Source: Vicinamibacteria bacterium (GTDB taxonomy: Bacteria > Acidobacteriota > Vicinamibacteria > Marinacidobacterales > Marinacidobacteraceae). Taken from it: a DNA stretch of 64,000 bases. The notes under the pieces are model-generated. The model saw only the letters and a list, made by a program, of their open reading frames with translations, did not search any database and had not been told where the DNA came from. The position numbers and the translations under genes were made by a program. Of this stretch, positions 5,237 through 44,392 are shown in pieces. How positions within the stretch are numbered: the stretch's first letter is position 1; each line of letters starts with the position of its first letter. The stretch is from assembly GCA_963555995.3 (NCBI GenBank), contig OY821641.1:2784001-2848000 (forward strand), in the 5' to 3' direction.

Positions 5237-5311
5237 TTGCAAATGCGCTGTTGGATTCGTTGCAATAGTGCTACTGGCTTCGTTGCAAATGTGCGGTTGC
5301 GTTGTTAGCGT
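5237..5311 (+). promoter_or_regulatory. Three 23-bp direct repeats overlapping a putative sigma70 promoter (TTGCAA-N17-TAGCGT)
   Basis: TTGCAA at 5237, 5260 and 5283; -10-like TAGCGT at 5306-5311. Confidence 0.6.
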
Positions 5312-20517: not shown

Positions 20518-21063
20518 GGCGGTCCCCCTGAAGCGAGAACCGAAGCCTCAGCCAACGACGCAAACAGGTGACAAAGTTCGTGTCGTTTAAGCCCGATCTT
20601 TACCTGTCGTTTGACATCCCCAGACCGGCACAGCGGCGCTCCGCACCACGCACGGCGCAACTCCACCCACCCACACCGCGTCCCCGGCTTGGAACGCCGG
20701 TCTCCAGACCGGCACAGCGGCGCTCCGCGCCGCCCACGGCGCAACTCCACCCACCCACACGGCGTCCACAGCTTGGAACGCCGGTCTCCAGACCGGCACA
20801 GCGGCGCTCCGCGCCGCGCACGGCGCAACTCCACCCGCCCACACGGCGTCCACAGCTTGGAACGCCGGTCTCCAGACCGGCACAGCGGCGCTCCGCGCCG
20901 CGCACGGCGCAACTCCACCCGCCCACACGGCGTCCCCGGCCGGGAACGCCGGCCCGCCCGACCGGCACCGCCCGCCGCAGGCGGGCGAAGCGCACAATTC
21001 CCGCCACTCCCGAGGCGCCGTCGCCCCCGTACACTCTCCCCCCGAAAGGCCCATCACCCACCC

Positions 21064-29086: not shown

Positions 29087-30058
29087 ATGCCCCAAGCCAT
29101 CCGCATCCAGCAACCCGGCGGCCCCGAGGTGATGACCCTCGGGTCCGTCCCCGAGGCCGCTCCCGGCCCCGGCGAGGCCCTCGTCCGGGTGGAAGCCGCC
29201 GGGGTGAACTTCATTGACACCTACCACCGCACCGGGCTCTACGCCGTCCCGCTCCCGTTCACCCCGGGCGTCGAGGGCGCCGGGGTGGTGGAGGCGGTGG
29301 GGCCCGACGTCCCGGACCTCGCGCCGGGAGACCGGGTGGGCTGGGTGATGCAGATGGGCAGCTACGCCGAGGCGGCCGTGCGCCCCGCGGCGAAGCTGGT
29401 CCGGCTGCCCGAGGGAGTCACGACCACCCAGGCCGCCGCCGCGCTCCTGCAGGGGATGACGGCGCACTACCTGGTGCGCTCCACGTTCCGGGTGCAGTCC
29501 GGGATGCCGGTGCTGGTCCACGCCGCCGCCGGCGGCATGGGCCTGCTGCTCTGCCAACTGTGCCGGGCGCTCGGCGCCCGCGTGTTCGGCACCGTCTCGA
29601 CCGAAGCGAAGGCGAAGGCGGCGCGCGCCGCCGGCGCCGACCACGTGATCCGCTACACCGAGGAGGATTTCGCCGAGGTGATCCGGGAAGAACTCGGGGA
29701 CGAGGGACTGGCGGTCGCCTACGACTCGGTGGGCGAGACGACCTGGCGGAAGAGCATGAGCCTCCTCCGCCCGCGCGGGATGCTCGTCCTCTACGGCCAG
29801 TCGTCCGGACCGGTCCCCCCGGTGGACCCGCTGCTGCTGTCCCAGCATGGGTCCCTGTTCCTGACCCGGCCGACCCTCGGCGACTACGCGGCGACCACCG
29901 ACGAACTCCGCTGGCGCGCCGGCGAAGTGCTGGACGGCGTCGCCACCGGCAAGCTCCGGCTCACCATAGACCGGGAACTCCCCCTCGCCGACGCCGCCGA
30001 AGCCCACCGCCTCCTCGAGTCCCGAGCCACCACCGGCAAGCTCATCCTCCGCCCGTAG
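29087..30058 (+). CDS. qor: NADPH:quinone oxidoreductase (zeta-crystallin/MDR family)
   Basis: GVNFIDTYHRTGLY, LLQGMTAHYL, HAAAGGMG, GSLFLTRPTL, TTGKLIL. Confidence 0.92.
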   Translation: MPQAIRIQQPGGPEVMTLGSVPEAAPGPGEALVRVEAAGVNFIDTYHRTGLYAVPLPFTPGVEGAGVVEAVGPDVPDLAPGDRVGWVMQMGSYAEAAVRPAAKLVRLPEGVTTTQAAAALLQGMTAHYLVRSTFRVQSGMPVLVHAAAGGMGLLLCQLCRALGARVFGTVSTEAKAKAARAAGADHVIRYTEEDFAEVIREELGDEGLAVAYDSVGETTWRKSMSLLRPRGMLVLYGQSSGPVPPVDPLLLSQHGSLFLTRPTLGDYAATTDELRWRAGEVLDGVATGKLRLTIDRELPLADAAEAHRLLESRATTGKLILRP

Positions 30059-30078
30059 GGGCCCGGGACCGCCGGCCT

Positions 30079-30187
30079 GGAACGCCGGTCTCCAGACCGG
30101 CACGCGCGGTGCTCCGCACCGCGCACGTCGTGACCCCACCCTACTCTCGGTGACGCGTACGGGTTGGACCGCCGGCCTCCGGCCGGC
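30079..30187 (+). repeat. Two REP hairpins (GGAACGCCGGTCTCCAGACCGGC and GGACCGCCGGCCTCCGGCCGGC)
   Basis: Match to the window-wide REP family. Confidence 0.8.
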
Positions 30188-30189
30188 AA

Positions 30190-30604
30190 GCTCCCCGCAA
30201 TTGACCAGAGCTCCCCGCAATTGACCAGAGCTCCCCGCAATTGACCGGAGTTCCCCGCAATTGACCGGAGTTCCAGCGTGAATTGACCGGAGCTCGGGGC
30301 CCGAACTGACCGGAGTTCACCGTGGGCAGGCAGGAACCCGGCAAGCGCGCGGATCCGCCGAGGAGCCGGTCATCCCCCGGTAGATCGGCCCGAAAAGCCT
30401 GAAACCGGATCGAAAACCGGCGTTCCGGTCACGCGTGGAGATCCGGCTCCCGGCGAGCGCGCCTCCCGAACCGACCGCCACGGTTTGACCGGAGCTCGGC
30501 CGGAATTGACCATAGCTCCGATCCGAAATGACCATAGCTCGGCCGGAATTGACCGGAGCTGAACCTCGAATGACCGGAGTTCCAGGCCGGATTGACCGGA
30601 GTTC
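30190..30604 (+). repeat. Array of 12 AATTGACC(GG/AG/AT)AG(C/T)TC-consensus motifs in two clusters of six, period 20-23 bp
   Basis: TGACC at 30202, 30222, 30242, 30262, 30284, 30307 and 30486, 30507, 30529, 30550, 30571, 30593. Confidence 0.9.
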
Positions 30605-30624
30605 GCGCGCTGCGGCGCCGCCGC

Positions 30625-31338
30625 TCAGCCGCGTCGCTTCGGCCGGTGAATGACGACGTCGGAGCCGTCGAAGGTATGGACGGCGTCCGGTGCGCGCTCG
30701 CGGACGAGTTCGAAGCCGGGTGTGTCCGCCAGCAGGCGTTCCGGGTTGGAGAGGCGCCAACGGGTGATGCGTCGGGTCCTCCAGTCCGGGTGCGCCACCT
30801 GATACGGCGGGCCACCGTGCGGGGCGCCGTATTCGCGGCGGCTGAGGAACGCCGCCAGGGGGTCCTCGTCCAGCGTCGTCCAGGGAGGCGTTTCGCTGTC
30901 AAACTCGATGCCGATTTCCGTTCCCGGCCCCGGCGCGGCGAAGCGGATCCGTGAGGTGTCGCCCGGGGTCCCGGCGATGCTCAGGTGCAGCCCGGGGATC
31001 ACGCGGTAGGACTCGCGGAAGAGGCGGTTCGCCAGAAAGGTCAGCAACCGGTCCGGCACGAATTCCCGCAGGAACGTGACCCCCGGCTGCCCGTCTTCGT
31101 CCCGCACGTAGGTGCGGAGGTTGATTTCCGCAAAGTCCCGGTATCCGACGGCGGGCAGGCCCAGGACGTTCAGGTTGCGGAACCGGAAGGCGACCAGTGA
31201 CAGCCACGCCTCGCCGTCGAAGAGGTCGGCGGCGACCCCGGAGGGGACGAGCGGTGCGACATCCCGAGGGTCGGCCGTCCAGCTCCAGCAGGCCAGGTGG
31301 GTCCACCGGGCGCGGGCGAACACGGTGGTCACGGTCAC
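30625..31338 (-). CDS. DUF2071 (YqjF-like) protein
   Basis: ARWTHL...DLFDGEAWLSLVAFRF, FAEINLRTYV, GVTFL, YQVAHPDW. Confidence 0.85.
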   Translation of the reverse strand: MTVTTVFARARWTHLACWSWTADPRDVAPLVPSGVAADLFDGEAWLSLVAFRFRNLNVLGLPAVGYRDFAEINLRTYVRDEDGQPGVTFLREFVPDRLLTFLANRLFRESYRVIPGLHLSIAGTPGDTSRIRFAAPGPGTEIGIEFDSETPPWTTLDEDPLAAFLSRREYGAPHGGPPYQVAHPDWRTRRITRWRLSNPERLLADTPGFELVRERAPDAVHTFDGSDVVIHRPKRRG

Positions 31339-31418
31339 GTCCCTCGCCGCGGGTCAGGCGCCGCGGAACTACTCGGCTTCATCGTCTCGTGCGACTCCGC
31401 CCATGAGCACGGGAGCGA

Positions 31419-32039
31419 TCAGTTCGCGTTCGTGAACAGGAAGCCGAAGACCGCGATGAGGACGGTGATCAGGAGGGCGTAGGCCCCGATCATGATCTGT
31501 CCCAGGAGCTTCAACCCGTCGAGGCGCGCGACGATCACGTCCAGCTTGCGGTCCTGCTCGTCGAGCCGACGGTCGCGTGCGGCGCCGGCCGCAGCCAGGG
31601 CATCCAGCTTGCGGTTGCGCTCGTCGAGGCGGCGGTCGATGTCGTCAAAGCGGCGGTCGCGCTCGTCGAAGCGGCGGTCCATCTCGGCGGCGACGGCGTC
31701 CAACTTGCGGTCGAAGCGGCGGTCCTGCTCGTCGAACCGGCGGTTCTGCTCGTCGAACCGGCGGTTCATCTCCGTCACGAACGGCTGAAGCTGCTGGGCG
31801 CCGGTCTCCGAGATCATGGTGTGCATCCGCTTTTCCGCAGTATAGGCGAGCTTCGCCGCGACGCCCGCGTCCAGCAGAGCGTGGAAAACGGCGCCTTCCC
31901 CGGCGGGTTTCGGGGCGGCGTCCGCGCGAGGCGGCGCCGTCTCGGGCGGCGTGGCCGGTTTCGGTGGGGGTTCGGCGTCGGGCGGTAGCGGGGTGGGTTG
32001 AGGCATCGGGAACTCCTCCGGGAATGCGTCGGAGGACAC
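31419..32039 (-). CDS. Hypothetical coiled-coil heptad-repeat protein with C-terminal membrane anchor
   Basis: Pro-rich N-terminus, repeated RRFDEQD/RRFDERD heptads, hydrophobic tail. Confidence 0.75.
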   Translation of the reverse strand: MSSDAFPEEFPMPQPTPLPPDAEPPPKPATPPETAPPRADAAPKPAGEGAVFHALLDAGVAAKLAYTAEKRMHTMISETGAQQLQPFVTEMNRRFDEQNRRFDEQDRRFDRKLDAVAAEMDRRFDERDRRFDDIDRRLDERNRKLDALAAAGAARDRRLDEQDRKLDVIVARLDGLKLLGQIMIGAYALLITVLIAVFGFLFTNAN

Positions 32040-32406: not shown

Positions 32407-33543
32407 TCAGTAGAGGCCGGGGACGATCCGGTACTTCACGCGGGCCTGGTACTCGGCCCACTTCTCGGGACCGTACTTCAGGGCGCAGTGCGCGTCGTCG
32501 TCCCACTGGCGGTAGATGAAGAACGAGACGACGAAGACGAAGTAGGTCCAAGCCCACGGATTCGTGAAGTGGCCGAAGATCAAGGCAATCGACAGCCCCA
32601 GGAATCCCTCGCCCAGATAGTTGAAGTGGCGGGCGACGCCCCAGAAACCGCTGCACAGGATCCTGCGGTCGCCGGCCTCGATGACCTCGGGCTCGATTCC
32701 CAGGAACTTGCGGTCGGGCCAGCGCTTGAAGGTGTACTTCTGCAGGTTGGCGCCGCGTGAGATGCCCCACCCGAAGAGGAACATGGCCACCGTCCCGATG
32801 AGCCAGACGTTCGTCCAACCCGGCGAGAATCCCGGGTTGGGGTGCACGGCCAAACCCCAGAGCGGCAGGATGAACATCCACCCATAGACCACGAGGCCGC
32901 CCCAGAACAGCTTGAAGCCGACGTTCTCGTGGATCAGGTCGTAGGTGTAGAGCTGGACGCGCTCGAAGATGAAGTAGTCGAGGACGTAGAAGGTGAAGAA
33001 GCCCGCGTACACGAAGACGCCGGGATTGGAGTCCTCGCCGAAGAGTTCGTAGTGGTAGGCGGCCCCGGACAGGGCGTTCAGCGAGAGCATCGTTCCGCCC
33101 ACGACGTAGAACCACATCTTCACGTCGAAGCGGTGGCCCCAGAACTGGAGCTCCTGCGCCCGTCCGAACCACCACGCCAGGAACCGACTCTTGACCTTGC
33201 CTTCCGGCTGGCTGAACACCGCCAGGATCGTGAGGACGATGGTGAAGACCGTTCCGCCGGCGACGGCGTAGAGGGAGGACCGGTAGAACCAATCCCGCGG
33301 CATCCCGGTGAGCTCGAAGGCCCAAACGATGAGCGCGATCACGAACACCAGCAGGCCGTTCAGGCGGTACCTGCGGGGTTCCCCCGTCTCCGGAGCGATG
33401 ACGTAACCGGGAACCCACCGTCCCGGCAGGATGAGCTGCGCCAGGAAGAACGCCGCGAAGACCACCAGCGGGGTGAAGAACCCCAGGATCTTCTCCGTCC
33501 CGGAAAGCTCGAGCAGGTGGCCGATGCCGAGCCACTCGATCAT
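32407..33543 (-). CDS. ERG4/ERG24-like sterol reductase family membrane protein
   Basis: YRLNGL, FDVKMW, YDLIHENVGFKLFWG, GANLQKYTFK, SGFWGVARHFNYLGE, DDAHCALKYG..W..Y...V.YRIVPGLY. Confidence 0.88.
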   Translation of the reverse strand: MIEWLGIGHLLELSGTEKILGFFTPLVVFAAFFLAQLILPGRWVPGYVIAPETGEPRRYRLNGLLVFVIALIVWAFELTGMPRDWFYRSSLYAVAGGTVFTIVLTILAVFSQPEGKVKSRFLAWWFGRAQELQFWGHRFDVKMWFYVVGGTMLSLNALSGAAYHYELFGEDSNPGVFVYAGFFTFYVLDYFIFERVQLYTYDLIHENVGFKLFWGGLVVYGWMFILPLWGLAVHPNPGFSPGWTNVWLIGTVAMFLFGWGISRGANLQKYTFKRWPDRKFLGIEPEVIEAGDRRILCSGFWGVARHFNYLGEGFLGLSIALIFGHFTNPWAWTYFVFVVSFFIYRQWDDDAHCALKYGPEKWAEYQARVKYRIVPGLY

Positions 33544-33628
33544 GACCGAATCCCCCTTCCCCAGTGACCCGGTCACACTCGGACCTGGACACGGAGGCGA
33601 TCAATTACACACTACGCACGGGGGAGGA

Positions 33629-44035: not shown

Positions 44036-44392
44036 GCTCCGACGCGGCCCCCTACCGACCACGGATCACGGCCTGGACGGCGGTGCCCCACGCCGAGGCG
44101 AGAACCACCTTCCCCCGTGCAGTCACGACGGGCGCGGCGCGGAGCGCCGCGCGTGCCGGTCTGGAGACCGGCGTTCCAAGCCGGCGCGGCGCCTCCGCTG
44201 GGGAGCGCGCTCCGACGCGGCACCCTGCGGAACCCTGATCACGGCCTGGACGGCGGTGCTCCATGCCCAATTGAGAGCCATCTTCCCCCGTGGAATCGCG
44301 ACGGGCGCGGCGCGGAGCGCCGCGGGTGCCGGTCTGGAGACCGGCGTTCCAAGCCGGCCCGTCGCCTCCGGTGGTGAGCGCGCTCCGACGCT
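44036..44392. repeat. Two 173-bp tandem units, each containing a REP
   Basis: GATCACGGCCTGGACGGCGGTGC at 44064 and 44237; REP at 44153 and 44326. Confidence 0.85.

Follow-up and report, generated by a model that had tools for sequence, protein, structure and literature searches.

The DNA analyzed here, referred to as the window, is a 64,000-nucleotide stretch of the genome of a Vicinamibacteria bacterium (G000 in our set) and contains an array of twelve short boxes between the convergent 3′ ends of two genes. On the left, a zinc-binding dehydrogenase gene (qor; 29087..30058, + strand) is the fixed anchor of a variable site and is followed by a REP-like hairpin repeat (30070..30141, no strand assigned), which is abundant throughout the genus and neighbors the array while lying outside it. 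The left cluster (30199..30318, + strand) has six boxes, at 30202, 30222, 30242, 30262, 30284, and 30307 (spacings 20, 20, 20, 22, and 23 bp), and the right cluster (30483..30604, + strand) has six more in the same orientation, at 30486, 30507, 30529, 30550, 30571, and 30593 (spacings 21, 22, 21, 21, and 22 bp). Between them lies a spacer with phased A/T tracts (30319..30482, no strand assigned); the clusters are 179 bp apart start to start, with ∼168 bp between boxes. To the right, a DUF2071 gene (30625..31338, − strand), which has no listed match at this site in relatives, and a small coiled-coil gene with 21-bp coding repeats (31419..32039, − strand) are accessory cargo. A previous description made from the letters of the window (the sequence-only reading) had listed the twelve boxes with these spacings and a gap of about 170 bp, the convergent flanks, and the preceding REP hairpin, all of which are borne out. 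The first three 20-bp intervals, which it read as duplications, are a recent tandem (slippage) expansion.

The window array is real and evenly phased. Three runs of a single study (possibly the source) yielded short-read contigs that match 30219–31463 with 0–1 differences and no gaps, and a contig from a second study covers 30340–30461 with four substitutions and no gap; on this agreement, an assembly error was rejected. All twelve boxes are intact. Several stop codons fall in all three forward frames and the spacing is no multiple of 3, in line with the earlier view that the array is not coding. A coding repeat or broken gene was also rejected on the lack of a modulo-3 pattern and on frames that differ between copies.

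Other repeats occur in the window, including tandem REP-like 84-bp units (four copies) and a 173-bp duplication (20620–20968 and 44036–44391), and an A/T-rich 23-bp repeat (2.5 copies; 5237–5294) that is unusual for a 70% G+C genome. The window also carries an ERG4/ERG24-family sterol reductase gene (32407–33576), and a squalene synthase-like gene lies at locus L501; from these two genes, the organism may make or modify sterols.

Elements with boxes of this type, called window-type here, recur elsewhere. A search of G000 with a weight matrix of the twelve boxes turns up clusters at some ten sites, and a paired-box pattern matches 8 of 28 family genomes, namely G000 and 7 of its 27 relatives, so the array is not unique to the strain. 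Since the reversed pattern, used as a control, has no match in any of the 28 family genomes, and the paired-box pattern matches none of 400 other genomes of the phylum sample, the array is not a product of chance. Among the matches listed for GTDB contigs, several element-bearing contigs are titled Vicinamibacteria or Candidatus Marinacidobacterium and one is titled Gammaproteobacteria. A loose three-box scan of GTDB contigs gave at least 118 loci, mostly unrelated tandem repeats, and a metagenome scan gave at least 114 stretches, with about 8 family members among the matches listed and the rest unrelated. Loose three-box scans of viral contigs (37 loci and 7 loci) likewise returned mostly unrelated tandem repeats, and no copy of the two-cluster element was seen in them.

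Three loci in G000 show unusual arrangements. At L142 (G000:C1:679392-682420), about ten head-to-tail units of ∼300 bp, each with REP-like hairpins and one or two window-type boxes, run into a cluster; these units are a putative REP-driven amplification of boxes. There is one weak Y1 transposase match in the genome. At the adjoining L143 (G000:C1:682346-682850), arrays of two different box types overlap in opposite orientation, and at L147 (G000:C1:2969475-2969850) boxes on both strands form palindromes that are unlike the other elements.

Across copies, the period and the spacer length are kept and the linkers diverge, which supports the proposal of the sequence-only reading that the array is a protein-binding platform, with boxes predicted to lie on one face of the DNA. 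The 226 within-cluster spacings phase at 10.5 bp (R 0.75, from copies that are not independent). In 14 of 43 cluster pairs, a few of the 43 being spurious pairings, the box-to-box gap is 188–191 bp, usually with a step of 31–32 bp and then steps of 19–22 bp on either side. Five non-redundant paralogous 189-bp spacers align in register without gaps at 43–64% identity, and a sixth, from another genus, is 24–35% identical; the spacers have no codon-position pattern. Both spacers and flanks are G+C-rich, with A/T present as short phased tracts, and the A/T signal averaged over 26 spacers peaks at 9.9 bp (power 11.5 versus 2.5 at 10.5 bp), keeping its phase along the spacer. An A/T period shorter than the helical repeat favors, by DNA geometry, a left-handed coil. 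One report states that phased A-tracts may promote a mode of supercoiling (PMC4060949). The window spacer has a best A/T period of 9.8 bp (p 0.023 against 300 random genome segments); at 179 bp, it neither aligns to nor fits the profile of the 189-bp class, so the window copy has diverged. None of 43 window-type spacers contains an IHF-like site.

If the array is not coding, might it act as RNA or as a site of recombination? The window copy alone folds better than shuffled sequences (z −2.8 and −3.7), but an alignment of seven elements holds no conserved structure (consensus −15.6 kcal/mol over 323 columns, with an unfavorable covariation term) and Rfam returns one chance match (E 1.9) and no family, so the repetitive noncoding RNA suggested earlier is not supported. 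A recombinase attachment site would be in keeping with an element that lies behind an integrase gene (L041) and with two 86%-identical elements that bracket a SIR2 plus Schlafen-ATPase cassette in G002 (L121:4007-10646); in G001, the cassette occupies a different site (L135) and is followed by an element. Yet integrase number does not track the element in five genomes, there is no sharp crossover point between spacer halves, and the combination expected of a tyrosine-integrase att site, a linked integrase with a conserved crossover core, was not found. We consider a structured RNA or an attachment site extremely unlikely. No sigma-70 promoter-like site was found either, and the partner is probably not the protein resembling sigma region 4 that had been proposed.

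The site behind qor is a hotspot: depending on the relative, it is empty or is occupied by HipA modules, ATPases, or restriction genes. A full element is present there in G013, a collapsed one in G001, and a long array of a related box in G009. The neighbors of window-type elements at other loci, whose listing the sequence-only reading had proposed, are rich in toxin-antitoxin and defense families (Pfam; 115 of 178 picked ORFs): HipA, HicA, ParDE, BrnA, PIN, and HepT, together with SIR2, AlbA_2, DarT, MmeI, and AIPR. Set against a control, the picture is less striking. By NCBIfam, a different library from the Pfam used for that list, four of the five loci that bear the gene have a mobile or defense neighbor; for orphan arrays with other boxes, the figure is 2 of 12, versus 1 of 20 control gaps, and such arrays lie mostly among housekeeping genes.

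In an all-against-all comparison, one and the same convergent flanking gene turned up beside elements at unrelated sites. Of 38 two-cluster elements, 9 have this gene or a remnant within 900 bp, in each case convergent and on that one side, and the other 29 have no gene nearby. A gene or remnant of this subfamily sits beside an element in 7 of the 8 array-positive family genomes; G004 has window-type arrays without a close subfamily gene, and the nearest subfamily relatives in array-negative genomes (2 of 20: G041 and G016) have other helices and other boxes. In G000, the candidate cognate gene (G000:C1:1819743-1820627) is intact, encodes 294 amino acids, and lies about 1 Mb from the window. 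Thus, the earlier label of orphan stands locally and fails genome-wide, where a likely cognate gene exists.

The predicted protein begins with amphipathic helices, which a proline linker joins to a winged helix of the Fic-like_C type. In the AlphaFold model, residues 31–147 form a long helical hairpin with generic fold matches, the linker is disordered, and the winged helix (213–292) is confident. Residues 28–54 are cationic and amphipathic (hydrophobic moment 0.5–0.64), and the protein has no segment of transmembrane strength. Pfam, Foldseek, and Atlas all point weakly to a Fic-like_C identity for the winged helix: the match to PF21247 scores 20.8 bits against a curated cut-off of 27, Foldseek ranks the Fic protein 4rgl first (E 0.02), and the Atlas neighbors are PF21247 clusters at 0.77–0.78. 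For the N-terminal part, an Atlas search returned unnamed clusters (0.79–0.82). A viral fold search gave nothing at E 0.001, PADLOC had no match, AlbA_2 nuclease and HATPase_c_4 domains are absent from the protein, and longer fused forms of the gene were not found, which is weak evidence. Of 26 protein-family members, 9 match Fic-like_C weakly (Pfam), and no member matches a Rep initiator family, the only matches being to Fic-like_C and weak HTH families. The partner is therefore probably a Fic-like_C winged-helix protein and not the Rep or Par protein expected from the earlier comparison to iterons and parC.

The protein family occurs in 21 of 28 genomes. G000 has six paralogues, each of which adjoins an array with a different box (6 of 6), and each box type also has orphan arrays elsewhere. 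In an unbiased scan of G000, 18 of 20 phased arrays fell into the box classes of the six paralogues. One array with 31–33-bp phasing (L482, G000:C1:114454) has a box unlike all six; its presumed partner gene is missing or lost.

Could the window copy be a functionless relic, left after deletion of its gene and now subject to slow decay and slippage? The 29 elements without a gene nearby, the slippage expansion of the first three intervals, and the single clusters to which elements have collapsed at orthologous sites (L048 versus L049, and L131 versus L122) would all be expected of relics. Since the genome retains an intact cognate gene, all twelve boxes are intact, and the five paralogous 189-bp spacers have stayed in register, we judge this explanation to be very unlikely.

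Pairing of gene and array extends across the protein family. An array is present at 54 of 66 distinct loci across relatives, at least two of the 54 (L416 and L419) being probable mis-assignments. With the rest of the protein taken into account, box and recognition helix have a partial rank correlation of 0.29; scanned along the protein, the correlation is highest over the helix (0.32) and over the basic arm (0.31) and is near 0 over most other parts. The pairs are not independent, and shared descent explains part of the co-variation. Three separate clades of a FastTree tree, computed with the recognition helix left out, combine a helix bearing Asp1 and Asn4 with the window-type core. In G000, only the paralogue at 1.82 Mb has this helix, and a box next to it shares an identical 15-base stretch with the first two window boxes. 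One box type can take the place of another at orthologous sites, as at carB-patB (L488 versus L122 and L131). By these comparisons, box sequence tracks the predicted recognition helix. In six species (L393, L394, L395, L396, L399, and L410), the family gene precedes the same protease-like gene, and at least four different helix-box pairs occupy this site.

Adjacency, co-variation, and the shared helix make the window array most likely a docking platform for the paralogue ∼1 Mb away. We infer that docking by the cognate winged-helix protein is very probable. The winged helix would bind each box on one DNA face, and the clusters, together with a bendable spacer, would assemble several copies of the protein into one wrapped complex.

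More distant relatives extend the pattern. A profile search gave 1,564 hits, and the long ones inspected are Schlafen (AlbA_2)-HATPase proteins that end in the same winged helix. Searches of plasmids contributed little more. Of 39 linker repeats detected just before this domain, 28 have a period of 7 residues (21 bp) and 3 a period of 14 residues. In the four Schlafen-type genes analyzed at the DNA level, protein identity between neighboring repeat copies is 41–50%, conservation at third codon positions equals that at the other two, and rare A-ending Leu, Gln, or Val codons make up 18 of 26 in the repeats versus 18 of 316 elsewhere, a count that is inflated by tandem origin, with the bias visible in each of the four genes. 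These repeats look conserved as DNA, and we read them as putative boxes for the very protein that they encode, with the reading frame imposing the 21-bp period. At L474 (G277), a stand-alone small winged-helix gene has 4-residue (12-bp) repeats before the domain. A gene resembling the small coiled-coil gene of the window (31419..32039) follows the family gene at L400.

Prokaryotic Schlafen HisKinase-HTH proteins (PMC13056530) and the PF21247 Fic proteins share the C-terminal winged helix and a defense-island setting with the family described here. The gene here differs in having no nuclease or ATPase, and its boxes lie outside the reading frame. In the passages covered here, HisKinase-HTH fusions are 19.2% of 5,930 Schlafen proteins, only two of seven tested Schlafen systems gave defense, neither of them a HisKinase fusion, and no DNA array is described for these proteins (PMC13056530).

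What might docking accomplish? One possibility is regulation, in which the protein represses its own and accessory genes either by covering a promoter or by acting as a block to transcription; orphan arrays would then serve as insulators or be left-overs. Across the family, arrays lie upstream, downstream, on both sides of, or inside genes, with up to 40 copies. At 46 loci, they are just upstream of the family gene and often stop a short way ahead of an A/T-rich stretch; 8 of these 46 have an IHF-like site nearby versus 36 of 3,000 random segments (at most one mismatch to the consensus), and boxes inside Schlafen genes could act as roadblocks. Window-type arrays, which lie behind a stop codon or between convergent genes and have no promoter-like site, fit regulation poorly, as do arrays of up to 40 boxes, which exceed an operator, and an amphipathic N-terminus that it leaves unexplained. 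Although a serious contender, regulatory docking is on balance unlikely. By eye, in two-cluster arrays upstream of the family gene at L402 and L413, a spacer match to the IHF consensus directly precedes the gene-proximal cluster.

Another possibility is a centromere-like tether, in which the protein anchors array DNA to the membrane through its amphipathic helices and so organizes or segregates the locus. R1 parC-ParR (PMC2241845), c-st tubC-TubR (PMC6009700), and the ParR-parC families of C. perfringens (PMC9426499) are plasmid and phage centromeres with binding proteins. Like them, the system here has a split direct-repeat array on one DNA face, a candidate cognate protein, and specificity diversified between families; the direct repeats are phased, and the gene lies beside the array family-wide (54 of 66 loci), although not at the window copy. 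Resemblance of split arrays with private specificities to parC and tubC (PMC2241845, PMC6009700), the cationic amphipathic segment, and the conserved spacer length would all suit a tether. However, no motor NTPase adjoins the gene: ParA, ParM, and TubZ are absent from 115 neighbors (Pfam) and 68 neighbors (NCBIfam), and no replication or recombination gene, recombinases included, was found as a constant neighbor. Unlike parC and tubC, the array exists in many copies dispersed over the chromosome, with periods of two and three turns and a spacer near 189 bp, and its predicted partner combines a Fic-like_C winged helix with an amphipathic N-terminus. Many unrelated specificities on one chromosome, a gene that is often broken, and Schlafen and Fic relatives without amphipathic helices further argue against a tether, which we regard as decidedly improbable. 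At L144:6273-7139 (G000 near 709.8 kb), an ORF reads as ParA-type-ATPase-like, with a small gene downstream, ∼2 kb from degenerate boxes.

We favor a reading in which the window array may be the orphan DNA half of a two-part module, a dock that holds the distant protein sequestered; taken as a whole, its chance falls just short of even. The sequestering role in itself is a tentative proposal, somewhat below an even chance. The complex could serve as a DNA "antitoxin" or guard, with the N-terminal part kept inactive until the DNA is lost or degraded. This part would be the effector, made of cationic amphipathic helices here and of a Schlafen nuclease or Fic enzyme in distant relatives, and orphan arrays might be extra sinks left at insertion hotspots. 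Sequestration is favored because the same domain joins different effector-like parts, arrays are found in every position and may reach great length, specificities diverge rapidly, and arrays outlast their decaying genes; the frequent toxin-antitoxin and defense neighbors lend support. Against it, a simple sink needs no fixed spacer length, the protein lacks a PADLOC match, and the HisKinase fusions tested elsewhere gave no defense (PMC13056530). The decoy array of the sequence-only reading would be retained in a modified version in which what it soaks up is the cognate protein. A broader version, which we consider possible but doubtful, is a widespread class of "DNA-antitoxin" guards, in which Fic-like_C winged helices would tie varied effectors (membrane-active helices, Schlafen nucleases, or Fic enzymes) to private phased arrays beside or within their genes and let them go on degradation of the chromosome or loss of the module; orphan arrays such as the window copy would then immunize the cell against incoming modules that share their specificity.

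Known systems offer partial parallels. Iteron origins (P1, F, and RK2) have boxes every 20–22 bp and a winged-helix reader, and extra arrays titrate the protein; the system here is alike in box spacing and predicted reader and, as we propose, in titrating extra arrays. It differs from iterons in that there is no Rep family match, no A/T-rich unwinding region beside the boxes, and no location on a replicon. Type III toxin-antitoxin systems and retrons use a repeated nucleic acid to keep an effector inactive, whereas here the repeat would act as chromosomal double-stranded DNA, with no conserved RNA structure and no reverse transcriptase. No described protein-array system of such a kind was found in the literature searched, which contained few subscription journals. 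The protein-array system is real, conserved, and undescribed; its function is predicted only.

These findings turn an orphan repeat into a testable protein-DNA pair and provide a natural recognition code from ∼50 pairs. They also suggest what the winged-helix tail of a common class of bacterial Schlafen proteins may do, and why the linker has 7-residue repeats: these would be binding sites for the protein within its own gene. If sequestration is correct, the arrays would represent a new way in which bacteria sense the loss of their own DNA.
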